From an uncultured bacterium (GTDB lineage Bacteria > Patescibacteriota > Gracilibacteria > BD1-5 > UBA2023), in contig CAIVSN010000116.1 of assembly GCA_903908595.1 (NCBI GenBank), positions 454 to 64,453 of the forward strand: a stretch of 64,000 bases of DNA, given 5' to 3'. A program made the translations under genes and the position numbers. The notes beneath the pieces were generated by a model. It did not search any database. It worked only from the letters and a program-made list of their open reading frames with translations, and was not told where the DNA came from. Below are positions 13,309 through 34,630 of the stretch, piece by piece. Position 1 is the stretch's first letter, and each line of letters opens with the position of its first letter.

Positions 13309-13329
13309 TGGAGCACCCAGTAGGGTTCG
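13309..13329. repeat. Degenerate direct copy (17 of 21 nt) of the tRNA-Arg 3' end
   Basis: tggagcacccagtagggttcg compared with tggtgcacccagctgggctcg (14472-14492). Same orientation, and preceded by a T-run like the other copies. Confidence 0.6.
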
Positions 13330-14246: not shown

Positions 14247-14471
14247 TTGGTGCACCCAGCTGGGCTCGCCCGTTGGGCCGCCCGGGGCCGGAGTCCAAAC
14301 CGTTGGACTCCTCGATGCTCCGCATCGCCCCGCGTTCTCGCCGGGGGTTTTGATTATTTTGGTGCACCCAGCTGGGCTCGCCCGTTGGGCCGCCCGGGGC
14401 CGGAGTCCAAACCGTTGGACTCCTCGATGCTCCGCATCGCCCCGCGTTCTCGCCGGGGGTTTTGATTATTT
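14247..14471. repeat. Two tandem 112/113-bp units immediately 3' of tRNA-Arg. Each ends with a 21-nt copy of the tRNA 3' end.
   Basis: ggtgcacccagctgggctcg starts at 14248, 14360 and 14473, and the third occurrence is the tRNA itself. Each unit also contains the hairpins cgatgc-gga-gcatcg and ggagtcc-N8-ggactcc. Confidence 0.9.
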
Positions 14472-18260: not shown

Positions 18261-18605
18261 TTATTTTTTCTCTGCCGACGTTTCCCCGAAAATCATAGTA
18301 ACGATAGCGAGGACAATGGCAAATACGGCGGCTGACAAAAATCCGTCCAATACGAATCCCGGTACGATTTTTGCGACCAGCATCACCATGAGCACGTTGA
18401 TAACAAGGGAAACGAGCCCGAGCGTCAGGAGGTTCAGGGGAAGCGTCAGCAGCTTCAAAACAGGCGTGATGGTGGCGTTGACCACGGCGAGGACGACCGC
18501 GACGATAATCGCCGTCACGTACCCGTCCACGTGGGATCACGGGGTGAAATAGGAAGCGATGGCGATTGCCAGCGCGGAAATCAGAAGGTTCAAGATGATG
18601 GCCAT
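18261..18605 (-). CDS. Phage holin family IV / DUF360-type small membrane protein
   Basis: Track ORF 18261-18530 is joined across TGA 18537-18539 to ATG 18603-18605. MAIILNLLISALAIAIASYFTP[G]SHVDGYVTAIIVAVVLAVVNATITPVLKLLTLPLNLLTLGL matches the family, with the TGA falling on the conserved PG. Ends in TAA. Confidence 0.75.
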
Positions 18606-18778
18606 ATGGGGAAAATTAGGAATACGGCCTGACATTATACGCGTATGTGCGGGAATGGGTAAAGATAAGCCGGGGGGCGGGGGGATTTCATGATTTGATA
18701 TCATCAAATATAGCAAATACGGGAAAATTCCATACACTTCGCTTATGAATGGATTGTATTTTTTAAATTTTATAAGAT

Positions 18779-19324
18779 ATGTTCAACACGTTCTTTTCTT
18801 TTTTGATAAAGCCTACTGAAGTTACCAAGGAAATTTTATCTTTCGATAATAAAACGAAGGATATCGTTACGGTATCGATAGTCGTTCTTTACTTCATATC
18901 CTGACAGTTACTTGCCTATATGATGTTGCCGGAACTATATCTGCTCTGAATTTCTGCCTTGTCCGTTGTCACGGCATTTGCAATGTCATTTATCGGGTTT
19001 TACTCGTTCAATCTTGGAATGCAACTATTCGGGAAGGCAATTGGTGGGAAAGGTTCATTTAGGGATGTAAGCGTCGTGACGGCGTATTCGATGTTTATCT
19101 ACGTTATCTTGACCCCTCTGATTTCCATTGTCTCAAAGGTGCTTTGACTCGGGTTTATCGGAACTGCCAGTATGCTTATACCATTGGTCTGGTTCTTGAT
19201 AATATATTCGAAATCACTATCGCAAGCACAGCAATTTTCTGAAACCAAGGTATTGGTAAATGTGCTGGTTGTTGGTGGCATATTCTACTTTATCATTGCT
19301 GTTTTACCAAAATTAGGTCTTTAG
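18779..19324 (+). CDS. Yip1-like integral membrane protein, in an AT-rich segment
   Basis: ATG 18779. Frame-2 sequence including track ORF 18959-19147 is joined across TGA 18902, 18947 and 19145. Ends in TAG 19322-19324. Has five hydrophobic helices. Confidence 0.6.
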
Positions 19325-19458
19325 GGTAAACTTGTACTTGGGCTCTTTTCCCTCAGTGTCGATTCCGCTTTCCAAGCGGACTCTCGCTTCGGGAAACGCC
19401 TTGCGACAAGCTTGCCATTCCAGGCAAGCTTTCCCCGGCTCGCCGCTCCGCGCTCGCC

Positions 19459-19490
19459 GGTGTCGCTGCGGTTCGAGCCCCGCCAAACCC
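19459..19490 (+). pseudogene. Fragment copying the tRNA-Lys 3' portion (T-arm plus acceptor 3' strand), inverted relative to the gene
   Basis: ggtgtcgctgcggttcgagccccgccaaaccc compared with tRNA-Lys AGGTCGCGGGTTCGAGCCCCGCCAAACCC. One G is deleted from the T-stem. Confidence 0.7.
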
Positions 19491-19503
19491 GGCGTCCCGC
19501 GTG

Positions 19504-19530
19504 AAAAAACCCGCTTGCGCGGGTTTTTTT
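19504..19530. terminator. Bidirectional intrinsic terminator
   Basis: aaaaaacccgc-ttgc-gcgggttttttt, located between the Yip1-like gene (+) and the ankyrin gene (-). Confidence 0.75.
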
Positions 19531-19572
19531 GGAGTTCTGATGGTGGGTTACCCAACTCCGCTAAACATGTTT

Positions 19573-20793
19573 TTACCTCAATACCTGAAGCATCTTTTCT
19601 CTGAAAACATCGTTTTTAATTTGAGAAGCATAATCAATGGCCGATTGATCAAGCGAATCCATTAAATTTGGGTTTACTCAAAAATCTATTAATAACTTCG
19701 CCGTCCTGACTGCTTCTTCAGAAGCACTTGACTGTTCTTTTTTTGGTAAGGTATTAAAATTATGAACAAGATAATCATTAAGATAGAGACGTTCCTGAAT
19801 TTCTAAAATCAATGCAGTGCGTCCAAGATCATCTACTGTATTTGGATTTGCATCAATGCTTTTGAGGTAATCAAAATCATTTTTTGTTAATCCTCTTAGT
19901 CGATCAAACCATACGGGGGAATGGTATGATTCCTTATATGGATAACGGGCTGGTCCCCATATCGAAGCAAACAAAGTGATATTTACATCTTTAATGCCGA
20001 GGCATCTTCCTGATATCAGAAAGTACGACATATTCCCGCCATGCCTATCATTAAGAATGATTTGTTTGAGTTTTTGGCAACCGTGTGACCATTCTTGGGA
20101 ATTTGGAAACTGTCATATACATAGAGCATATTGGGAGTATGTTCCAGACAAACCACTATCGAGCGTATTGATTTTACCACACATATTGGAATCTTTATTT
20201 TTGATTGCTTCTTGTATTAATTGTAACCTTTTACACGAATCACTATAAACATACATGTTATCACAAGAAATCGGGTCATTTGAATAAATAGTTTTTGAGG
20301 TAATTTCTTCGAGTTTACACGAAGCATACATATGTGTATTGGGAGTATATATTGAGCAACTTGCATTTTGTTCTACAAAAGACTTATAATTTGCACCTTG
20401 CAAACAACCACTATACCAGCTGTTCCAAGTTGAGAGCATAGATTTTTCTTCTCCTTGAGATATTCATGCTAATGGTAGTTTGCAAAACATATCATTTCCT
20501 GTTACTTGTGCTAAGGAGCTTGAAAAGATTACCAAATTTTTCTGCCAAACAAATAAACTGCAGATTAGAATTGGAATTAGGAGTGCAAATTTTTTTATTG
20601 ATATTTTGGGCTCTAACTTTCGTGATTTTACAATTTTCTTAATCGATAGAAAAATACCAAAGATTACTATTGATATATGGGCATAGTAAACAAAACTGAC
20701 GAGCTTATACCAGATAAATAATTCAATCATATACATTCTGATTATCCGATAAGATTTATTTGCATTAAAACAAGTAAATACCATTCTCGGCAT
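19573..20793 (-). CDS. Membrane-anchored Cys-rich protein with C-terminal ankyrin repeats, in an AT-rich segment
   Basis: Same-frame track ORFs 20464-20793, 20113-20439 and 19678-20031 are joined by TGA 20464, 20113 and 19678. Ends in TAA 19573-19575. Ankyrin-like: DANPNTVDDLGRTALI and LLIDF[G]VNPNLMDSLDQSAIDYA. The start is uncertain; ATG 20736 is an alternative. Confidence 0.6.
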
Positions 20794-20887
20794 TTACTTG
20801 TTTTGTCTTTCGTTACTTTCTTTTATCAAAGCCAATCTTCTTCCCCTCACCGAGAGGAGGTAAAAAAGTTTGACGGTCTTGGTACAA

Positions 20888-20963
20888 TGGTGGGTTTGGC
20901 GGGGCTCGAACCCGCGACCTTGGCCTTAAAAGGGCCCTGCTCTACCTGCTGAGCTACAAACCC
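20888..20963 (-). tRNA. tRNA-Lys (anticodon UUU), CCA encoded
   Basis: Minus strand reads GGGTTTGTAGCTCAGCAGGTAGAGCAGGGCCCTTTTAAGGCCAAGGTCGCGGGTTCGAGCCCCGCCAAACCCACCA. The anticodon loop is CTTTTAA. Confidence 0.9.
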
Positions 20964-21066
20964 AAAAAAGTGGGTCTCCAATCCTTCTCATTTTCTACTT
21001 CGGGGGCATTGTAGACAAAGAACCCGGAAAGTCGAATTTATTTTGAAATTTTCGCCCCTTCCATTC

Positions 21067-21094
21067 CTTGCAAACCCCGGCATATATGATACTA
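21067..21094 (+). promoter_or_regulatory. Candidate promoter of the giant gene (TTGCAA-N16-TACTAT with an extended -10 TG)
   Basis: -35 TTGCAA 21067-21072 and -10 TACTAT 21089-21094, with TG at 21086-21087. It lies about 30 nt upstream of ATG 21125. Confidence 0.45.
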
Positions 21095-21124
21095 TGGCCC
21101 CTAGAAAGATATCCGATCCCTTCC

Positions 21125-24100
21125 ATGTCCGTATTTCCCAAACCAAGCAGGCTCAAAAAATGGGTTTCCTCACTCCTCATTTTTACCATGTTCGCGAGCC
21201 AGACGGTGCAATTCCCGTTGCTGGTTCCCAGGATCTTCGCGGAAGGCAGCGACGTTCCGAATTTGGTATCGATCATCGTCAGCGAGTCCGTCTTTACTGG
21301 CAACACGAAGGACAAAATTTCCCAATATTCCAAGGATATCCAGGCTTCGATGACCAATACCCGGGTCGTCATCGTGAACGTGCCCGACAACATCGCCCCG
21401 CACAGCATCGCGGCGCTCAATGAAAAACTCTACTACGAAGGCGACGGCGACGGGATTTCCCGGCTCGTGGGGACCGTCCTGATCGGGAAACTCCCGATTC
21501 CCGTGGTCCACAACGGAAGCAAGAGCTTTCTCAGCATCTATCCGTATACCGACTTCGACGAAAAGGTCTTCATGTTCGACGTGGAGAAGGGCTACTACGA
21601 GGCTGGAAGCGGACCCGTGGAGCATGACAGCCCAGAAATCTGGCACGGGGTCATCCAGCCGAATTCCGGGGATTCCGCCACCGACCGGGCCAAACTCGAA
21701 CAGTACCTCGACAAGACGCACGATTTCTATGCGAAGCAGGGGGTGTTCGCCAACATGAGCCAGACGCCCTACGTTTTCTATCTCGACATCACCCACGACC
21801 AGGAAGCCGCGAGCGCTTCCAATTGGAAGGCGTACAACCTCGGCCTCGAATACCTGGAAGATCTTACCTACAAGCGCTTCAACAAGCACCTGGCCAAAAC
21901 GCTGTACGACAAGTTCCAGGGCATGCAGGATTCCACGGCGGATCTGACTTCCGAGGAAAAAGCCGAGCTCGGGGCCGCTGGGGTGGACATTCCGCCGATG
22001 GCCGATTCCATGGATTTTTCCAGTTCCCCGGACATCCAGACCCGCACCGCCATCACCGAGGTAACGAAGCAGTTCTTCGAGATTTTCAACGAAAAATACC
22101 TCGGGGACATCCTCAAGTTCATCTACAACACGGGAAGATACGGCGACGGGAGGGATACCCGGGCCGATATCGCTCCGGTACTGGTATCCAAGCGCGACGA
22201 ATTCATGAAGCGGGTCATTAAGGACAGCAATACCGCGCTCGAAAACAGCATCGACCAGCTCGTGAAATCCGGCCTCGCGATCGATCTGGCCATTCCGACC
22301 GACGTCAAAATCACCAAAACCGGCTCGGGCGCTGACGCCAACAACCCCGTTCCGCCGATATACCGCAATTACTATTATGGGAAATTGGCGAGTTCCATTA
22401 CCAACGCGAAGGAGTGCTCCATCGTCCGGGGTTCTACGCTCCCGGTCGAAGCGAACCGGGGATACAATATCCTCAACGTCGAGCCGGATTTGCAGAAGCT
22501 TACCCAATATTCGACGCTGTGCTTCCCCGGAGGGCTTCCCGCGACGATGGACTGGTGGGGCGGCAACAGCCCGCTCAACGTGAAGACCGATTCGTTCACG
22601 GCGGCGGATTTGGCGATCTTGCAAAGCGCGACGGGCGGAACGGACCTCTCCGCCTACGAAGGCAAGCTCTCCACCAAGTTCGAGCTCAAGGGCAACGTCT
22701 ATAAGGATTACGTCATCCAGACCTTCGATCTCCTGGGGCAAAGCGAAATCTCGCGTACCGGAGCGCTCCGCGTCAATTCCCCGTCGGATTGTCTCGCCTC
22801 GAACTATATCGCGGATCCGTTCGTCGGAAAATCCGAGGATGGGATGTCATTTTCCCAATTCCAGCATCCGCAGACTACGGGGGGGACGCAGTTCGTCTGC
22901 GTGATGCGGGACAGCAAGGGGGTGCTCGGCCACAAGTTTTTCGTGCAATCCAGCACGACCCTTTTCGCGGACGCCATCGCCGACCGGATCAACCCGCCCC
23001 TCTGTACCGTCGTCAAAGTCAATCTGGTGGGAGGTTTTTCCAAGCAGTTCGGACGGCTGTGCGATGAAGAAGTACCGGTGGCGACCACGGGAAACGGAAC
23101 GGGAGAATCCTCCGGAACGGAAACGGTGACGACCGGGACGACCGAGGAGTACGACTTCAAAAAGATATCTTCCTGGATCGTCCACAAATCCCCCACGGAC
23201 GAAGAATACGGGGCCGCCGTCAAAGGCATGACCACTCCTTCCCTCGCGAGCGACGGGGACCGCTACATCGACTTCATGGGCCCTGCGGGAACCGTCCAAA
23301 AAATCGTCTATCCGAATTTTTTCCGGCTGAACAACCAGTCCTACGAGGCCGCGTTGGCAACGGCAGGAACCTGAGGCAGCACGTTTTTTGGCGATCTCGT
23401 GACCGTCGTGGACCACTCCCTCGCCTCGGCCGGCTGAGGCACCGTGGCCAACACTGGGGCCAGCCTGCTTTCCGGCAATATGCCCGACCTGACCATCGAT
23501 ATGGTCAAAGATTCCATCAAGGCGGTCCTCGATAAGAAAAGCGCCGAAATCAACGCCATTATCAACGCGCAGGATCCGGCGCTCCTCACCGGGGATCAGG
23601 CCGCGATCTACCAGCTCATGAATACCGGCGCCTATCCGGCCGCCAACGTCGATCTCTATACGATGGTCGCGAGCAGCGGGAACATGCTCACGACCCTGGC
23701 GGATACCATCCTCTGGTACAACCGCACCAACGCGACGAGCAAGTATTCGTTCATCCTCGAGAATTACCTCGACCGCGACGGGAACCGGGACTACCCGCTT
23801 TCCGGGCACCATTCCGATTATGAAATGGGATACATCGGCGGACCCGGCGACGCGCAGAACATGTACGTCAAGGTCGACCCAGAATCCAAAGGCACCCTGT
23901 CGAAAGACATTACCGACATCCAGGCCGACTACGGTTCCCTCGTAAACCTGCTGGACGCCGCGAACGTCGCCGAGTACAGTCCCGAAGATTCCCAATTCAA
24001 GTGCGGGCCGCCGGAGGGCGTGGTCATTTGGAAATGGCTTCCTGCCGTCTTCTGCTGGCTCGGGACGATTCTCCCGCCGACCATTTCGGCCGGATCCTGC

Positions 24101-27100
24101 GGACCGCAACTCGGCTCCGATACGGACAAGGGGCAAGACCGCGATTTTTTCACTTCGATTCCGGGCACGGACGGCAAGCTCGCCTGGCAGCAAGACCTCG
24201 ACCATAACGGAATCCTCGACGGATACGAGTGGGTCAAGGACGGGGAAATCAAGCTTGCCGCTTCTCTCAAGCGGATCGGATACCGCTCGGGCGCGGCGCT
24301 GACGGCCGATCTCACGAAGGACGGCCGGATTCTCGCCCACGATTCGTACAACCAGGTATTTTTCGACGTCAAGAAAATCACGCTGCTGAAGGGTCAGAAC
24401 GATCTCGAAGGCAATCCGGTGACTTCCGACAAGATCGTCTACGTCCGGGGAGGAACGGGAGCCGCCGGAAGCATCGAGACGCTCAAAAAATACGTTTTCT
24501 TCACGCCGATCGCGGTCCGGGCGGAGGCGGGAACGGCCACCTACGGCATCCAATCCATCGACCGGGACATCGATATCGATATCGTCGCCACCGTCGCTCC
24601 GAAAGACAAAAACGGAAACGTCGCCTTTTCCAAGGATTCCAATCTCATTACCCTCAAAGTCCGGGACGAAGCGCTCAAAATCGGTACGGAAATCCAGGAA
24701 ACCACCGGAACCGGATCCCGGGTCGATCCGACCTTCAAGGCGGGAGACGCGAGCAAAATCACCTTCAAGTTCACGGTATCCGGGAAAAATCCCGAAACGC
24801 CGACGGCCGCGAAATCGCCCATCAAGATCAAAATCCTCGACGACGTCGACGGAACGGAGCTTACGCCGAGGCCGGCGGATATCGGCAGCGACACGTTCAT
24901 TTATGCCGGAAACCTCCTGAAACAGGCCGGGAATTACCGGTTCGAATTCGTCGACGCGGAAGACCGGTACGGCACCGTCATGGTGAACGTCCTCCCGGGC
25001 GACCCATTCAAGATCGAAGCCGTAGCGGCCTCGAACATGTTCGTGAAAGGCCAGAAAAATATGGTCCTCGTAACCGTGAAGGACCGATTCGACAACTACG
25101 TCAAGGGGGACTTGCTCCAGGTCGCCGGCACCGTCGACGGGGGCGCGTATTTCACGGAAAACCACGATGCCGCCAATTCGAAAAGCACCGTCGAAGGCGT
25201 ATTGAGCTTCGAGATGAGCGCCGACGCCGGAAGCACGGGCAACAACACCCACAAATTGGATTTCAGCACCGTCGACAGCAAAGGCGCGACCATCAAGATG
25301 GCCACGCCGCTGACCGTCCAATCCATCGACTACGCCAAGATCCAGGTAAACGTCGCGAACCGCGGCAGCCTGGTGGCCGGAGGTTCCGGACAGACCGTCA
25401 CGCTCAAGATTACCGACAATCTCGGGCAGGTATTGACCGGGTTCAACGGGGTCGCCAGTCTGGATTTTCCGAAAAATTCCGGATTCTTCAGCACGCCGTT
25501 CGTCCAAATCACGAACGGGACCAATTCCGGCGCCCTGACCTTCACTCCGGGAACGGTCGCGATCCTCGATGCCAAAATCGACGTGCAGGTCCCCGGGATC
25601 GTCGACGTGGAAGGCGGAACGCTGAGCATTCTCCCGAACGTGCCGATGCGCGTGGGACTCCTCTCCGATACCGCCAAATTCGAAGCCAAGGTCGGGAATT
25701 CCGCCGGGATTACCGCGCAACTGTTCGACCGGTACGGCAACATCGCCTACAATCACCCGGCCGGAATGTCGGCGAATTTCACGATTCCGAGCGGTTACGG
25801 CAAGTACGGCAGCATCAGCGGGGGGAACGTGCCATTCGCGAACGGGGAAGCCAAGGTCCAAATCAATTCCAGCAGCAGTCCGGGCACCCTCTATTATATG
25901 GTGGAAGTCGCTCCCGGACTCGAAACGAATACCTTTACCATAGAAGGGGAAAATATCGACACGACCCCTCCGACGAAAACTTCCGTCACGATCAAGGGGT
26001 ATTCCAAAAACGTCGCCTACATCGAGAGCTACTACCTGTGGAACGCGGAAAAACTCGCGAAAACCAACTACAACGTCCTCTCCACCACCCTGCTCGGGGC
26101 CGACTACGGAAACGTCACCGTTCCGAACTATCTCGCGGGCGAACTGATTTTCAATTCCGGCAGCTCGTCGATGGCGGTCACGACGCTCCTGGGCAACGCC
26201 GAAAAGCGGGACGAAATCGTCCAGATGACCCCGGGAGGAAAAATCGTCCTCGACCGGGGCCAGACGGCCGAAGTCCAAATCGGTTCCAACAAGAACCGGA
26301 CGACGCTCGATATTTTCGACCCGTTCAAACGGGAAAATATCGGAAGGTTCTATCTCAATACCAGTCCGGCGACGCCGACGTTCGCATGCGCCACGGACGA
26401 AGCGGACGAAATCGACGCCTGCGACTTCCAGGGCAAGGAATCCTATATGGTCCTCAAGGGATTGGGCGAGGCCGAAGTGACGAAGATCGGCAACCGGCTC
26501 AGCCTCGGTTTCGACGGCATTCCCGTCTTCGAAATTTCTCCGGACGGAACGATCACCAAGTATCCGAACGTCACCGTGGAAGCGGACGGGGAAGAAAGCA
26601 GGAATCTCCTTTCGCTCTCCATCGTCAGCAGCGGCATCAAAATCGGACGGCTCGGCATCAAGTGGGACGCTCCGGAGATTATCGTCAGCTCCCCTTCGAC
26701 CCTCGACGCAGCGCTCGCGAGCCACCCCGGCACCATCGTCTACGAGGGCATTTCTCCCCGATACGGCATCAAACAGGACAACCTGGGGAATACTTCCGCG
26801 GGAGACAAGGGCCTCAAGATTTTCGCCCAGAGCGAAGACGTGGAGACGGACCGGGATCTCATAGGATCCTCCGGCAAGCTGGGATACGAGGAATACGCCA
26901 AAAACAAGGGGATCGGATTCGGCGACGGCAACAACACCCAACTCGAATTCGCGAGCCAATCCACCGTCGGGCAATCCGCCAAATCCTTCGCGACCTACTC
27001 CGAAATCGTCATCGGCGACCCGGTCGCGAGGCTTCCGGAAATCCTCTCTCCCCAGAACTTCGACCGAACCCTGGGAAAAAGGCTCATGAGCAGCGCCGGC

Positions 27101-30100
27101 GGAATCATCGAATCCTATTCGACGATCGACTACAACCGGGACAACATGCAGGACATCGTCGTCTTCTACCAGGACGGCAAGGTCGAGCTCCTGCAAAACT
27201 ACCGGTGAACCTACAAGAGCCTCGGCTATCTCCTCTACGTCTTCGACGCGGGCAAGGAACGCAAGGGCGCGGGGGATTTCAACGGCGACGGCTACGGGGA
27301 CTTGGTCATGGTGGACCAGGACGGCAAACTCATCGTCATCCAAAACCGAAAGGGCAAATTCGTCCGCGTACCCGCAAAAATCATCGACCAAGCCGGTGCC
27401 GAAGCCAAAATCGGCGGATCCGTCATGCAGCTGGAAATATTCGACATGGACAAGGACGGCAAAACCGACATCGTCATTTCCGACGATTCCGGAGAATTGA
27501 ACATCCTCTACGGCGGCGGCACTCCGGACGACGTCGTTTTCACCAAAAAATTGCTCGACGACGGCATCGGAATCAAGCTGGGAACCGGGGAATTCACGAA
27601 CGGCGGGGCGATCCGTTTCGACGGCATCAAGGAAATGACCCCGTTCACCCAGACCGGGTACGTCATGGAAACCGAGGCTTCCAGCGCGGACGCCGACGTC
27701 GAAACACTCAGCCTTCCGGACCAAATCCGGCTCTTGGACAGCAAAATCTACTACCAGCAAACCGTCTACGAGGAAGTTCAGAACCCGGCGGAGGCCCAGA
27801 ATATCCGGCTGCTCAGCGGAGTGGGCGACGATCCGGACAATCCCGGCGTCCCTAACCAGGCGCTCGCCGATGAGATCAGCCAGACGATTCTCGATTTGCA
27901 GAACCAGGCGGCGAGCGGCAGCATCGACACGAGCGAACTCACGAACGCGACGATCGAAAAGCAGCGCTCGTTCCTCCGATCCGAATTCGCGGACGGAAAA
28001 GACATAAAAATCGCAAAAAAATATACCGATAGCAACGGCGGGTTCCTTCAGGCGGGGGATCCGATCCTGGTAACGATCGACGTGACCAATGCCGGAAGCG
28101 CTCCCCTTTCCGGAGTCATCTATCTCGACAGTTACGAAAAATCCGTGTTCCAGCCGGGAGAAAACGATTCGTATGCCATTTACGGCGGGTCGGGCAGCAT
28201 GATGGGAACCGGGGCTTTCGCCGCCTTCACGGGAAGCACGTTCTTCGACGAACTGGCAACGGTCGTGGACCATTCATTGTCCGCGGCCTCGGGCGGCTGA
28301 TCGGCCGGAAGCGCCGCCGCCACGGGATCTGCCCAAGACGGGCTCATTGGCACCGGCAGCCTCGACCAGCTCACCGAAGGGGAATTCGACTTCCAATTCG
28401 GAACGCTGACCATCCCCGTGGGCCAGAAAATCACCATCAAATACCTCCTCAAGGCCAATGCTATCTCCGTCGGGAAATTCCACGTGGGCGTACTCGAAAC
28501 CGATGACATATACGGGGACGTCAGCATGAACGCGAACTCGGTCTGCTGAGACCAGGAATGGCTTTGGAAATCCATCGTACCGACTCCGAGAACGTATTCG
28601 GCAAGAACCCTCAGGGATATCCCGGAGAGCGGCGACGTAGCCGGTACCCAAAAGGGCAAGTTCACCGATTTCAACGGCAACGGATCCCCGGACTATATCG
28701 ACCTCCTTTCCGGAACGGGCGGTAACGATTCCATGGCGTCCTCGCTCTGGGATCCAACGCGACACGGGATCCTGGTTTTCCGCGAAACCTCGACCGATAC
28801 CGGGCTGGACGGAACGAATTTCGAAGTCGGACGGGTCGTCTCCAATTCCGAAACGGGGTACGTCCAACTCAACCCCGTATCCGTAAAGGAAGACGTTCCC
28901 GTTCTCGCGACGCCGGCGCTCGCCAACGGGACGATCAACGGAAACGAACTCGGCGCCGGAAGCGTCAGCAACGTCCTGACCGGAAGCGTTACCAATACGC
29001 TGATCACGACCGCCTGCGGACAACCGGGCACTTCCGTTTCGGATCTCCGGCTCACGGGATACCGGCAGATCTATCATCCGAGCGTCATGTCGGACATTAC
29101 GGGAAACCTCTCGCTCGTCGCCGTCGGAACGTCGAAAACCCTCGACGCTTCTGGAAGCGTCATCGGTACGGGCGACTGCATGATCGACATCAATTCGACG
29201 TCGAATCCGGCATGGGACGGTACCAAGGTCACCGGGCTCGGCTGGAAACTCCTCACCAAGGGAACCTTCCAGCACTTCAGCCTCGGGGGCACGCAATCCA
29301 ACCTCATCGCCGAGTCCGTCGGAATTCCCGACAGCCACGAACCGCTCGGAAGCGATTTGTTCACGTTCGAAAGCGATGGGTCGCTCATCGGGGGAACCGT
29401 CGACATCGGGGGCATGTCGGACGAAAACATCGACAAGGTCAACGGGGCCATCGATACCATCGTCCAGGGCCTCGGGTGCGGATTCGGAGGAGGTAGCTGC
29501 CTCTCCATGCCGATGAACTGGGCCCCTCTCGCCCCGGGTTCCGCTCCGGTCGTCATGGGATTCCCCATCGGGGGACTCAGTCCGTCGACGGGTTTCCCGG
29601 TATTCAGCAGCCTCACGGGCATCCAGACGATGTGCGGCAAATCGCCTTGCTGCATACCGAGCGTTTTTCCCATAAGCCCCCTCGCCTACGTACCCGGACC
29701 GGCTTGCGGATCCCCGAGCGCCGGAGGATACCTGGGCACCTGGGCGCCAACCAACACGTTCCGCTTCTATATCACCCCGACCATCACGGGAGCCGTGGGA
29801 ATCGCCGCGTGTTTCGGAGGTACGGCCATGGTTACCGGACGAATACCGCCACAGGCCGTATCGCCGCTCGTGCCGGGAGGCAACTGCGTCGTCGCGGCCA
29901 AGCCGCTCCTCGGCTGCAAGGACGACGGTTCCGACGGGACGTTCGAGGACTTGTGAAGCACCGATAACGGAACCCTCAATGCCGGATCCTGCAAGAACCA
30001 ATCCGACGAGGAAACCGTTTCCGCCGAAGACCAGGAAAAAATCCGAGCCTTCGTCCGCGGCGACAATACCTTCGTGAGCGATATCGTCAAAAATGCCGCG

Positions 30101-33100
30101 GGCCGCGGAAGCATGATTATTCCGAACGGTCCCCTGCTCTCCATCTGAGGCCGGGGCGGAAGCGGAGCCGGCAGCTTCGAGCTGGCCATCGATCTCAAGA
30201 GCATCAAGAACTTCGATATCGGCATCATCACCAAAATCAGCAACCAGCGGGTTTCCGCGTTCCCGGATTTCATCATGGACTGGGTCAACCGCCAATTGGA
30301 AGAAGTCGCCAACAAACTCACGAGCCTCCCGACGCTGTATATCATCAAGCCGGATTTCCGAGGCGTCATCGACGGCAACTGGAACGGGTTCACGGAGAAG
30401 CTCGGGAAAGCCTACGGTACCGGAAAGAAAAACGGCAGTCCGGTACTCGGCAACGAAAACGCCGGCCGGAGCATTTCCGGCGTCAAGTCAGCCTACGAAT
30501 TCATGTCCCGGCTCCCCCTTATCAAATTCGAGAAAACGACCCTGGACATCTCCTATCCGGACATCGGCCAGGAAGACCTCAACAAGGCCCTCAAGAATCT
30601 CAAGAATACCAAGGCCCAATGGGAGCGGGAGATTTCGAGCAAGAAAGCCCTGTACGCGGGCACGTTGACCGCTACCGGCATGGACGCGAGCATTATCGTC
30701 CGGTCGGAATGACTTATCAGCAGCATCAACCAGAACATCCGAACGATAGAGGAATACAAGAAATTCCCGGAAAAACTCGCGAAGTACCTTACCTGGAAGG
30801 AACGGTATGCGGCGCAATTGCTCTGCAATATCACGGCAATCCAAAACATGCTGGACAGTTTCATTACCAAGAATGCCATCCGCTTCAAGGCCTGGGTCGA
30901 GTTCTTCGAACTGCTCAAGAACATCCTCAAGGGCTGGCAGCTCATCCCGGACCTCTTCTACAAGAACGAGGCCGAATGCGGGGTGTGCCGCAACGAGCGC
31001 TACGACGCGAAGCATTTCATGTTCAAGCTCATCAAGGCCATCATACCGCCGCTTCCGATCATCAAGTTCCCGAAGTGGCCGGACATCATCTTGGACCTCC
31101 ACAACGTTCGGCTCGGCCTCCGCATCGCCATGCCGGAATTCGTGTTCCACCCGACCCCGATCGTCCTTCCGAGATTCCCGAATCTCGCGTTGCCGACGCT
31201 TCCGAAACTGGGCATCGGTTTGCCGAGCATTCCGACGCTTCCGAGCCTGCCGCCGTTACCGGAATTGCCGGATATTCCGTCGCTTCCGCTCATCACCCTT
31301 CCGGAACTCCCGCCGCCGCCGACCATCCCGAAGCTCTTCGGAGCCATCAAATTCACGTTGAACATCCTCAAGATCATCGCGAAGGTCCTCTGTATCATGC
31401 GTTCGAATCCGTTCGTGCCGGAATGGCGCGCCGGAGACCAGATTGCCCAGATTACGGAACGGCAGGGCAAAATGAAGCTCGACTTCCTCAATATCGAATT
31501 CCCGCAGTTCAACGCGAGCTTCGTCGATGCCATCAAGGTGACGACCTACGTGAATTTCGAGTTCCAGATCGACTTCCTCCTCGAAATGGCCAAAGCCACG
31601 TTCGAACCGATCAACGCGTTCACCTCGAACCTCTCGAACATCGTTCCGAACGCGACCAAGGACATCCTTCCGAACAAAGTGGACCTCCGCGGGCTCAATC
31701 CGGGCAACCAGAAAATCCAAATCGGTCCGACCGGAATGGAAGGCAAAAACCCGTTCGTCAAGCAATACGCCCAAACGTTGGCCCAAGCATTCGTTACGAC
31801 GATCAAGCAAGGACAATTCTACGCGAACGAATCGGCGGCCTACGAGGAAATACGGGAGAATCTCGCCGACGAGCTCGCCCATACCCACGCGACCCCGGGA
31901 ACCCCGGGATTCGCCATCCTCGAAGAAATGCGGGAAGGACTCCGGATTCGCGGCGATGCCGAAGCCGAAGCCCTCGCGACCGAACTCCGAAGGGACAACG
32001 ACGAAAAGTTCAACCTCGCGAACGGTTTCGTCAAATCGGAGATGCACGAAATCACGGAACTCCAGGCCCAACTCCACCTCGTGCAAACCGGCAAGAAGGA
32101 CCTCTCGGATATTTTCGGGACCCGGAAAAGCGGGGGAAATGCCGAATTGACGGATTCCGCGAACCCGTACAGCACCGAATCGGAACTTCCAGATTTCACC
32201 AAATTCAACGAACGGGCCTACGTCGCCTATTCCGAACTCCTCGCACCGAAGCCGGACGACGAACTCGTGACCATGGGAAAAAATCTCAAGGACAGCATGC
32301 AAGCCTATTCCGCGGAAGCCGAGAGGAAGTCCGCCGAATACTGAGCCGGAACTGACATTGCCGGCGGAGGCGAACTCGCGAATTACGAATACCGCGGCAT
32401 TTATACCAAGGACAACGGTCGGCAGATCCGGCTCTTCGATTACACCAACGACCTCATGGGAGACGAGAGAGCCGTCCAGGTCGACCGGCTCGGAAACGGG
32501 GCGATAGAATATATCTACCTGAGCGGGGACGGATTGTATCTCAAGACCAAACTGGGGAATTCCGGAACCTCGGCGACGAGCGGAAGCGCTTCCACGGGCG
32601 GAACCGGTTTCTTCGACGAACTCGGCACCGTCGTGGACAATTCCCTGTCCATGGCTACGGGAGGAACTCCGACTGCCAACACCGGAGGTGGGACTTCGGG
32701 CAGCGTCACGACCAGCATTCCCGTCTACCGGCTTTCCGGCATCATCGATCTTCCGAATTCCGAAACGTTGCGGCCGACCGCGCCGAACCGTTTCGTGGAA
32801 AGATTCGTGGCTTCCGGGGAAATCAACTTCTCGTTCCGGCCGGCCGACTTGGTCAACGACACGATTTTTCGAATGGAATTCTACGATTATATCGATCGCT
32901 TCGACCTGCGGATGAGTGGGAAAGACTGGAAGGATATCGCGCCGACCACCCGGGTTTCCTACGTGGATCTCGTCCCGGAATTCACGGGCGAAACCGTGAC
33001 GGACGCTTCCAATACCGGCATCATCCTCCAAAAACCCTATGCGAAATACTTACAGGGAACCGGGAACGGATTCATCAGCGGGGCGGACTACCGCACCCTC

Positions 33101-34630
33101 TGAGCCGGCTCGAAGATTCAGGTTGCCGCGAGCAAATCGATCTATGCTGACGGAGGCGGAGCGAAAATCGCGTACAAAATCGCCGACAGCGCGGCTTCCG
33201 TTACGGGCAGCACGGTGACCATACCGAATTCCGGAGAACTCAAATTCTTGGACAACATGGACATGGAAGTCCTGAACGGAAACGTCATCCTCATTAACGA
33301 GAGTTCGAGCCCCGTACGGCGGCCACAGGATTTTCAGAAACTGAACGGGCTTCCCGTCATCCTGGGTCAGAAAATAGAAATTCCCGCGACGACGGCCCGG
33401 CTCAATATCGAGTATTACAACGGCGCATCGCTCCGCATGGACGGGCCGAGCCTCTATGAAAGCCACGAGCTCGGAGCGAAATCCGACGAATATGACGTGT
33501 CGCTCCGCCAGGATAACGGCTGGTACTACGCCAGGCTCGAAAGCGTTTCGCCGAGCCCCCGGACCAGTACGCGGATCACGCTGCTTTCGCCACAAATGGA
33601 AGCCGACAAGGAAGCTCCGCTCATCGAGGTCGCGGGAGGATTCCGGGCGCCGGTCTATCTCGACCGTGCCATAGACTTACGCGAACAGATTACGGACGTT
33701 TCCGGCATCAGCGACGTGTTTATCGACACGGATCTCGCGGCCGATTCCGACCGGGATGGGCAAATGGACAACGACCGGGATTCCGACGCGGCCGGATCGA
33801 TATTCAGAAAGGGCAGCTCCAATCTCGAATGGATCGTCAAAGCCCAGGATCGACTGTTCGAGAAGAAAATCAAAATCTGGGCCGGGGACGAAAGCGGAAA
33901 TTTGGCAGGAACAGAGACGGATCTCCGCATCTATGCCCCGGTTCCGAATATTTCGACCCAATCGGGAACCACGATTTTCGGAAACCTCGACGAGTCGTTG
34001 GACGGCGAACCGACGGATATCGTCCGGTACCGCAACGGCAAGATTTCCCCTATCGGCAACGCGGCGCTTACCCAGAGCGGCGGGGAATTCCTCAATACCT
34101 TCGGCACGAATACCGGAATAGCCATCAGATGACCGTCGGGCGAATTGGCAAAAATCAACGAAAACACCGGAAAACTCACCCTGAGCGGCAGCGAGAACGA
34201 ATTCGTCGTCCTCCCGGCCAACGCCGACGTCCCGATGCGGATCGAAATCCAGAAGAAATCGGATCATTCCGTCCTCTACTCGCAATCCGTAGCACTGGGA
34301 AGCGCCGGGAAGATAGAACCCGTGTCCAGCCTCGCGGAAGCTCTCGCCAAAGCGAAATGAGGCCTCGGCGTACGTCTCGATGCCGGATGGAATTTCGTCC
34401 GGAACCCGGGCAATAGCCCGTCGCTTCCAGGAGGCATATTCGTCACGGACGCGGACATGAAACCGGTGTTCGGTATCGCCAAGGATGGCAACGTATACTT
34501 CCTGAAATCCTCTGGACTCAGCCTGAAATACGGAACCGAACAGGACTACTTCGTCATCGAAGTCCGCGACGCGGACCATCTCGTCGGAACCCTCTATTAC
34601 GTACTCGATGCCGAATATGTCATCAAATAG
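21125..34630 (+). CDS. Giant secreted surface protein (~4,500 aa) with FG-GAP/VCBS-like, Ig-like and DUF11/CARDB-like segments and a Pro-rich region
   Basis: Nine frame-2 track ORFs (21068-23374, 23444-27208, 27302-28300, 28733-29956, 30275-30712, 30818-32344, 32456-33103, 33215-34132, 34145-34360) are separated only by 12 in-frame TGAs. The first TAA/TAG in frame is TAG 34628-34630. Signal-like MSVFPKPSRLKKWVSSLLIFTMFASQ. FG-GAP-like GDFNGDGYGDLVMVDQDGKL and DMDKDGKTDIVISDDSGEL. Pro-rich LPSLPPLPELPDIPSLP. Confidence 0.85.

Follow-up and report, generated by a model that had tools for sequence, protein, structure and literature searches.

A layered islet of AT-rich cargo and a tRNA-tail-copying element behind the tRNA-Lys gene of a UGA-recoded gracilibacterium

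Gracilibacteria are host-dependent bacteria with genomes of about 1 Mb, and their altered genetic code is expected to isolate them from most gene flow. The stretch of 64,000 nucleotides (nt) analysed here, which we call the window and which lies within a 72.7-kb contig of an uncultured member of this group, raises the question of how AT-rich DNA came to lie against the 3' end of a transfer RNA (tRNA) gene in such an organism. An initial annotation, made from the sequence of the window alone, had seen at 18,720–20,963 one AT-rich island next to tRNA-Lys, with an inverted fragment of the tRNA and a 10-nt direct repeat at its edges. The presence of foreign AT-rich DNA at this tRNA proved to be broadly right, but the DNA consists of three or more pieces of separate origin stacked on one another, and the locus is a layered islet at a tRNA hotspot rather than one island. 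Its most unusual part is the GC-rich block between the two AT-rich parts, which belongs to a widespread family of non-coding elements that copy the tail of the neighbouring tRNA. In the explanation that we prefer, and to which we assign a probability of roughly 0.65, the 3' flank of tRNA-Lys is a recombination hotspot that carries a recombinase-less stack of three layers.

Both AT-rich parts, seen by eye in the initial annotation at 18.72–19.33 and 19.55–20.87 kb, stand out in a GC profile and are compositionally foreign. The outer part (18690–19324, GC 0.370) falls into the lowest 2.4% of segments of the same length in the 2.4-Mb assembly (G000; 186 contigs, 51.5% GC), and the inner part (19532–20887, GC 0.341) into the lowest 0.28%; by tetranucleotide distance the inner part ranks within the top 0.2% of the genome. 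The block that separates them, as had been described, is GC-rich (19325–19531, GC 0.614). The outer part encodes a Yip1-family membrane protein and the inner part a Cys-rich ankyrin-like protein; the GC of these genes is 0.39 and 0.336, and their GC at third codon positions (GC3) is 0.46 and 0.28, against 0.71–0.76 in the neighbouring genes. The host is the GC-richest of its genus (0.565 against 0.43–0.50 in the giant gene beside the locus), and the very low GC3 of the ankyrin-like gene in these surroundings argues for its arrival after the GC of the host had risen. Atypical composition is thus combined at this locus with a patchy distribution, as in genomic islands.

The comparison with relatives shows where such DNA enters. 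On the 5' side of the tRNA the flank is fixed: the giant surface-protein gene with the divergent tRNA-Lys(UUU) is kept in four genomes of the same genus and one of another genus (G001, G002, G004, G005 and G011). Past the tRNA 3' end, the DNA is low in GC and variable among the genomes of the genus. There G001 carries a HindVP restriction endonuclease, a C5 methylase and a helicase, G002 and G005 carry parts of type I restriction-modification systems and Abi_C/DUF3644, and G004 carries two AAA_14/DUF4143 ATPases. A conserved tRNA with differing low-GC cargo makes this flank a genus-wide variable hotspot. No distal tRNA-end repeat of the G001 and G005 islands was found within 6 kb. In G004 and G002, a homologue of 19340–19480 (about 79% identity), with its terminator, directly adjoins the tRNA-Lys 3' end. 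The units of these two genomes are bracketed by 20–21-nt direct repeats that reach from T-loop position 57 to the CCA plus one base, and G002 has two units in tandem. Judged by alignment, this arrangement represents the empty site of the inner AT-rich segment.

In the window the same order is opened up. Other copies of the element are usually followed by about 10–25 nt, the terminator, about 10 nt and the tRNA end; here the element and terminator are followed by 9 nt and the 10-mer ATGGTGGGTT, a further 1,337 nt of AT-rich DNA separate these from the tRNA, and the right arm of the element lies about 1.4 kb past the tRNA 3' end instead of the usual +50. The 10-mer is repeated at the tRNA end (20887–20896), as had been noticed from the sequence, and its distal copy aligns with the tRNA-Lys 3' ends of G004 and G002. 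The probability of an exact tRNA-end 10-mer anywhere in a shuffled 1.6-kb segment is about 0.003. Since ATGGTGGGTT occupies the place where the tRNA end should be, we take the 1.34-kb ankyrin segment to be an insertion at the last 10 nt of the tRNA, and the alignments support the repeat as the likely mark of its distal boundary. The cargo begins 1 nt after the intact tRNA-Lys(UUU) gene, whose end is at 20888, as in islands at tRNA 3' ends. Such islands likewise have their distal end marked by a direct repeat of the tRNA 3' fragment, although 10 nt is short for the class. Comparative genomics of the tRNA-Lys locus thus upholds an insertion at the tRNA end, with empty sites in G004 and G002, and not the single island envisaged at first.

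In the product of the ankyrin-like gene, two long N-terminal helices precede a Cys-rich helical middle, and the C-terminus is ankyrin-like. Its Pfam match is confined to one stretch (Ank_4, 24.0 bits against a cut-off of 22.7). The AlphaFold2 (AF2) model is all-helical with a predicted local distance difference test score (pLDDT) of 68, and almost every one of its top Foldseek matches is an ankyrin or a DARPin, though with a best E-value of only 0.014. The open reading frame (ORF) extends to 20793 (406 aa under table 25, 19573–20793, minus strand). A start there would run through a hairpin of the tRNA-proximal spacer (20767–20804, −19.6 kcal/mol, z = −8.6), which is followed by UUUU on the minus strand and forms the terminator of tRNA-Lys, and the homologue on metagenome contig L139 starts past its own hairpin; the true start is therefore probably ATG 20736 (MYMIELF...).

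This gene is very rare and has a constant address. Only four homologues were found among 5.8 billion proteins, and among the 89 genomes of the family the gene occurs in two, G000 and, as a partial, related Cys-rich membrane protein, G006. The closest homologue is that on contig L139, with about 70% DNA identity. In all three the gene lies directly behind tRNA-Lys(UUU) in the same orientation and in the same order of tRNA, homologous spacer with terminator, and gene. It is not unique to the tRNA-Lys of this genome, since relatives stand at the same position in two other recoded genomes. A rare gene at a constant address is the pattern expected of a site-specific mobile module. L139 also carries a putative relic, TAGTGGAGAT, about 40 nt past the stop codon. 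It matches the different tRNA end of that organism itself (TGGTGGAGAT), and the similarity stops at the same position as in the window; taken alone, such a match has a chance probability of about 0.04 anywhere in 1.5 kb. Further scans of contigs from genomes and metagenomes added only a homologue type from standard-code Paceibacterota, which does not lie at a tRNA. A GATGGTGGTG motif past the stop codon of the homologue in L140 was not used, being in the wrong orientation on a contig without a tRNA.

Both cargo genes are written in the code of their host. TGA is a sense codon across the assembly, the 4520-aa ORF beside the locus has 12 in-frame TGA codons, and a tRNA with a UCA anticodon is present on contig C142; together with TGA at conserved Gly columns this corresponds to code 25 (UGA = Gly). 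Two of the three TGA codons of the ankyrin-like gene fall at Gly columns of its homologues. The TGA that the initial annotation had placed in the ankyrin consensus, LLIDF[TGA]VNPN, aligns with Gly in homologues (LLIEFGVDP), and one homologue translated with TGA as Trp (W) shows W there. The three read-throughs predicted for each gene were found, in the Cys-rich ankyrin protein as well as in the Yip1-like one. The L139 homologue has four in-frame TGA codons. The TGA codons of the Yip1 gene also align with Gly, or with W in homologues translated with TGA as W. All three homologues of the Yip1 protein need TGA read as sense, and all show W (that is, TGA) at many Gly columns of the window protein. 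Because the three Yip1 homologues and the closest ankyrin homologue have in-frame TGA at conserved Gly columns, the donors of both genes were very probably UGA-recoded. The claim that any donor must have used code 25 goes further: the closest homologues are recoded, but a remoter ankyrin homologue with 48% identity, which lies among ribosomal genes of a Paceibacterota genome that uses the standard code, has no TGA, so that the claim is strongly supported but not logically necessary.

A practical consequence concerns the public records of these proteins. The translations of Yip1 and ankyrin homologues (P0003, P0006, P0007 and P0008) have Trp at sites that are Gly in this lineage. The reason is that TGA was read by code 4 and not code 25, and the miscalled residues distort identity values and hide conserved glycines. 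A transfer-messenger RNA (tmRNA) gene was not found in the assembly by ARAGORN, which found 33 tRNA genes.

The Yip1 ORF matches the Pfam family Yip1 (PF04893) with E = 2.7e-11 and 44.1 bits against a cut-off of 28.6, over profile positions 4–173 of 173, in agreement with its first reading as a Yip1-like protein. The gene is absent from the 60 relatives searched, and neither it nor the ankyrin-like gene is present in any of the five genomes of the same genus. Only three homologues were found, the nearest of which (73% identity) sits in an AT-rich patch of another recoded contig, away from a tRNA. The stop codon of the gene, TAG (19322–19324), overlaps the decayed left arm of the GC-rich element. 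At this site relatives have a 20–21-nt antisense copy of the tRNA-Lys 3' end (TGGTGGG...GGGGCTC), of which only GGGCTC (19340–19345) remains here; the arrival of the Yip1 gene or a later deletion may thus have removed the arm. Next to the Yip1 gene, a holin-like ORF (18261–18737) probably starts at 18608, where its Pfam match begins. In genus g4 (L152, G008:C125:1957-3873), the best homologue of this gene (75% identity) is likewise some 1.5 kb away from a tRNA-Lys(UUU) accompanied by an element copy, but in the opposite orientation; the holin-like gene may have long been a neighbour of the tRNA-Lys hotspot.

The GC-rich block with its inverted fragment turned out to be neither a scar nor a switch of the island but an ordinary copy of a family-wide element that stands behind 22 kinds of tRNA. 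With a covariance model (R1) built from nine copies after a DNA search, the element of about 150 nt was detected in 36 of the 204 genomes of the order, comprising 35 of the 89 family genomes and one weak match elsewhere, with up to 12 copies per genome. A convergent tRNA gene lies within 420 nt of 68 of the 85 distinct copies, at a median gap of 60 nt, and the tRNAs represent 22 anticodon types. Usually the left arm copies tRNA positions 57–76 in antisense and the right arm positions 54 to about 66 in sense, and some 60 other copies carry an arm module that agrees with their local tRNA. The two arms pair to form the closing stem of the proposed fold. Its further parts are a P1 domain, in which the hairpin is optional, and P2, a three-way junction carrying two hairpins. 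In an alignment of 86 distinct copies, which was fitted to the model and therefore somewhat flatters the pairing and covariation figures, 93.2% of cells are paired (70.7% in shuffles), 37 of 38 pairs change on both sides, and the covariation score is 0.504 (0.171 in shuffles, 0.06–0.09 with slid partners).

The copy in the window shares the fold, the terminator and the arms derived from a convergent tRNA with the rest of the family. It reaches 153 bits, its predicted fold has a minimum free energy (MFE) of −78.2 kcal/mol (z = −4.4), and its right arm matches the tRNA at 21 of 21 positions; its peculiarities are the decayed left arm and the displacement of the tRNA by 1.35 kb. The 32-nt inverted copy of tRNA-Lys reported at 19459–19490 is exact only over the 21 nt of the right arm, which is the reverse complement of 20892–20912, while the rest is a weaker upstream similarity. 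The hairpins with TTCCA-type loops (19364–19380 and 19408–19431) and the terminator folding on both strands are present as described. The inverted fragment and these hairpins recur throughout the family and are therefore standard parts of the element, not products of the AT-rich island. The terminator sits between the element and the tRNA in relatives, and the position is the same in G004, G002 and other copies.

In the assembly at least 7 of the 33 tRNA genes carry element arms. At tRNA-Arg(CCG) two perfect tandem mini-units of 112/113 nt (14248–14471), each headed by a 22-nt tRNA-end copy (TTTGGTGCACCCAGCTGGGCTC), have hairpins like hairpins 2 and 3 and a terminator-like end; they are a reduced subtype missed by model R1, and a further partial copy lies at 13309–13329. 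Near-identical cores at different tRNA genes within one genome indicate that the elements move or convert between tRNA genes. In the Leu-CAA/Leu-GAG pair of G004 the identity spans the core, the right arm and the terminator up to the tRNA end, and the right arm keeps the sequence of the source tRNA while the left arm is local. A poorly resolved tree of cores clusters partially by genome, by genus and by tRNA type.

The strand on which the element might act is less clearly marked. A conserved U.G pair (40 of the 54 copies with letters there) favours the strand antisense to the tRNA, while overall G.U (89) and A.C (86) are nearly equal. Where both outer arms differ, 30 cases are of the same base and 33 of a different base, with a weak excess of compensatory change. 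Co-oriented ORFs that end at the element, as expected if a cassette were an ORF plus the element, number 41 against 33.

Searches for known counterparts of the block gave little. Only the three tRNAs reach the Rfam gathering score, and the matches of 19200–19700 (E ≥ 0.001, far below the cut-offs) are driven by the terminator and were rejected as terminator look-alikes. A tmRNA or tRNA-like gene was also rejected: ARAGORN found none in the block, the acceptor is unpaired, and copies exist for 22 tRNA types. Within the assembly blastn of the block finds only the tRNA-derived 21-mer, and the second copy was recognised with the covariance model. A consensus terminator scan of 18500–21200 returned 0 sites, although two canonical terminators with a hairpin and T-run fold there at −17 to −20 kcal/mol. 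We found no description of such tRNA-tail-copying elements in the published literature, and the family is apparently unpublished.

The features of the locus are collected in Table 1. From the comparisons above we infer the following order of events. The tRNA-trailing element with its own bidirectional terminator, native to the family, would have been present first. The newest layer would be the 1.34-kb low-GC segment, made up of the tRNA-proximal spacer with its terminator and the ankyrin-like gene. Recombination in the last 10 nt of the tRNA may have placed this segment between tRNA and element, regenerating the tRNA end and leaving ATGGTGGGTT as a displaced copy. The low-GC Yip1 gene would have been acquired separately on the outer side, overwriting most of the left arm. 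The sources of both cargo genes may have been relatives of lower GC in which UGA likewise stands for glycine, and the recombinase would have acted in trans or have since been lost.

Table 1. Positions of the features of the tRNA-Lys locus in the window.
Feature	Position	Strand	Basis or remark
Yip1-family membrane protein gene, AT-rich outer cargo	18779–19324	+	ORF under table 25, 181 aa, 3 in-frame TGA = Gly
Decayed left arm of element	19322–19345	+	Alignment with G004 and G002 units
Conserved element core	19346–19469	+	Covariance model R1, 153 bits
P1 of element core	19346–19351 with 19391–19396		Hairpin 1 at 19364–19380
P2 of element core	19403–19407 with 19462–19466		Encloses hairpin 2 (19408–19431) and hairpin 3 (19436–19460)
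Right arm of element	19470–19490	+	Sense copy, exact over 21 nt, of the T-arm and 3' acceptor strand of tRNA-Lys (GGTTCGAGCCCCGCCAAACCC)
Bidirectional intrinsic terminator (A-run, CCCGC/GCGGG stem, T-run)	19503–19530	.	−18.6 (+) and −17.0 (−) kcal/mol
10-nt relic of tRNA-Lys 3' end (antisense of AACCCACCA plus 1 nt)	19540–19549	.	Identical to 20887–20896
Membrane-anchored Cys-rich ankyrin-like protein gene, AT-rich inner cargo	19573–20736	−	387 aa from ATG 20736, 3 TGA = Gly
tRNA-proximal spacer, common to relatives	20765–20887	.	84% identical to G001, 75% to G006
tRNA-Lys(UUU), CCA encoded, hotspot anchor	20888–20963	−	ARAGORN; Rfam 70.3 bits
Giant surface-protein gene, conserved, 12 TGA; fixed flank on tRNA 5' side	21068–34630	+	ORF and conservation

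Several observations weigh against this reconstruction. The islet contains neither an integrase nor another recombinase, its only ORFs being the Yip1 and ankyrin-like genes; the attachment-site (att)-like repeat is only 10 nt long and in L139 matches at only 9 of 10 positions; no relic was found at the ankyrin locus of G006; and at the outer edge of the Yip1 part no repeat can be recognised. The spacer, which is present in G001 with different cargo, may be fixed DNA of the locus and not part of a mobile unit, and ankyrin-type genes behind tRNA-Lys in three lineages also fit an old vertical residence with many losses. If the tRNA, spacer and ankyrin-like gene were indeed ancestral and mostly lost or overwritten elsewhere, the 10-mer would be a leftover or a chance match, and the low GC would have been kept for some reason unrelated to recent arrival. 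The spacer retained in G001 and the homologous gene and spacer in G006 and L139 agree with this, as does the modest identity with L139, which leaves no recent donor at hand. We consider such a history unlikely, if still the most serious of the alternatives: a GC3 of 0.28 would be hard to keep among genes at 0.71–0.76 over a long residence, the gene is confined to two family genomes, the element adjoins the tRNA in G004 and G002 with no trace of the spacer, and the relics of the window and of L139 each match their own, different tRNA acceptor and stop at the same position. Illegitimate or homology-assisted replacement, in which ordinary recombination was anchored on the tRNA and spacer and the 10-mer is junction micro-homology, would explain why no recombinase is found at the locus and why the Yip1 side has no repeat, and the spacer and tRNA do offer about 200 nt of 75–84% homology with relatives. 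It is possible, especially for the Yip1 gene. As an account of the whole locus we rank it behind vertical descent and hold it to be improbable, since the far junction coincides exactly with the tRNA end of relatives, and the combination of a short relic and cargo recurs in L139 and at the tRNA-Asn of G093, where ATGGCTCC, a conserved motif and cargo follow one another twice; this recurrence points to a defined crossover point.

Two further explanations rank lower still. The assembly, at 2.4 Mb, is about twice the size of its relatives (0.9–1.3 Mb), its estimated contamination is 5%, and several of its 186 contigs stop within about 130 nt of element-carrying tRNA genes, which suggests that the element repeats break the assembly. 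AT-rich stretches of a co-occurring low-GC relative could on this ground have been joined to the contig at shared repeats. Yet the junctions (19532–19550 and 18690–18780) have no long repeats, a 10-nt match is below the word sizes of assemblers, and on either side of the AT-rich gene lies sequence whose homologues (the element, the tRNA and the giant gene) belong to the lineage itself; a chimera is accordingly very unlikely. The least credible of all is an inversion of the ankyrin-like gene, implicit in the initial annotation, between the 21-nt repeats at 19470–19490 and 20892–20912, exact and inverted and flanking the segment at a distance of 1.4 kb though they are. The left repeat is the standard right arm, about 60 other copies of which lie about 50 nt from a tRNA with only a terminator between, no invertase is nearby, and, read from the sequence, a flip would turn the ACCA end of the tRNA into GGCG and so destroy its CCA end.

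A recombination hotspot with a recombinase-less stack, which we prefer to these accounts, calls for an enzyme acting from elsewhere or since lost. The two tyrosine recombinase genes (PF00589) of the assembly are on other contigs. In G004, just outside the left arm of the element at tRNA-Leu(GAG), there is an AT-rich gene with its own terminator for a 270-aa tyrosine recombinase (L151, G004:C48:501-1313), additional to the genus-wide Xer-like gene. Its position indicates that recombinase-bearing islands use such sites, and it is a candidate for the trans-acting enzyme. Repeats at the tRNA genes fall into two crossover zones. One is the T-loop, which gives the 20-nt repeats that enclose the small elements; the other is the final 8–10 nt, which gives the relics beside cargo. 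Integrases that target tRNA genes prefer defined sublocations within the gene. The separation of the element from its tRNA in the window tells these two crossover points apart and makes the system testable; at the same time the locus may be read as a dated snapshot, in which the element came first and was later parted from the tRNA by the insertion of cargo.

Two arrays elsewhere have a similar build. At the tRNA-Asn of G093 (L154, G093:C1:109800-119400) a unit comprises a 20-nt tRNA-end copy, the element, the terminator, the ATGGCTCC relic, the conserved TGGAGGAAGTTAGAAC and cargo genes; it occurs twice, with cargos of 4 kb and 2.3 kb, and is followed by two more units and the tRNA, giving a cassette-like stack. 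In G000 itself (C168:9429-10560) three element units lie behind tRNA-Leu(CAA), and about 620 nt of AT-rich DNA, ending at another tRNA-end copy, split the outermost one; this is the second such case in this genome. The arms there differ from the tRNA by a compensatory change (CCAAGCGGG paired with CCCGCTTGG).

From this point of view the locus exemplifies a possible route of gene exchange, in which tRNA 3' ends dock single-gene modules from other lineages with UGA = Gly, and the modules are layered at the tRNA end without a resident integrase. A bolder proposal, which we regard as tentative and rather doubtful, is that the element is the working part of a novel tRNA-anchored cassette system in Gracilibacteria and other bacteria with tiny genomes. 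The stem of the folded element, as RNA or single-stranded DNA, would then rebuild the duplex of the tRNA T-loop and 3' region, in the manner of attC; small cassettes, the ankyrin-like gene among them, would be docked and stacked at tRNA ends by a trans-acting recombinase; and the element would itself pass from one tRNA gene to another.

Islander-type genomic islands are described as integrated in tRNA genes by tyrosine integrases (PMC4383910). Our locus resembles tRNA islands in its site at the tRNA 3' end, the regenerated end and the displaced fragment at the far end, as well as in the atypical composition, the patchy distribution and the different cargo at the same tRNA in relatives. It differs from them in lacking an integrase, in a displaced fragment of only 10 nt, in a cargo of a single gene within 1.3 kb and in the separate structured non-coding element that here lies between two layers of cargo. 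Cis-mobilizable elements (CIMEs) are integrase-less remnants flanked by att sites and subject to tandem accretion, described for streptococcal integrative and conjugative elements (ICEs) at tRNA-Lys. They share with the present stack the recombinase-less modules, the att-like bounds, the tandem arrangement at the tRNA 3' end and the need for a recombinase in trans. The present units are much smaller, neither a parent ICE nor conjugation genes are known for them, and the small units are conserved as a fold and are not decaying remnants. The likeness to integron cassettes and their attC sites lies in one-gene modules at a fixed docking site together with a folded non-coding element that is conserved in structure and variable in sequence, and the tRNA-Asn array of G093, which repeats element, relic, conserved motif and cargo, is reminiscent of a cassette array. 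Unlike in integrons, the docking site is a tRNA end and not attI, IntI was not identified, and the ankyrin segment has no element of its own; the arms of the element copy the very tRNA beside which it stands.

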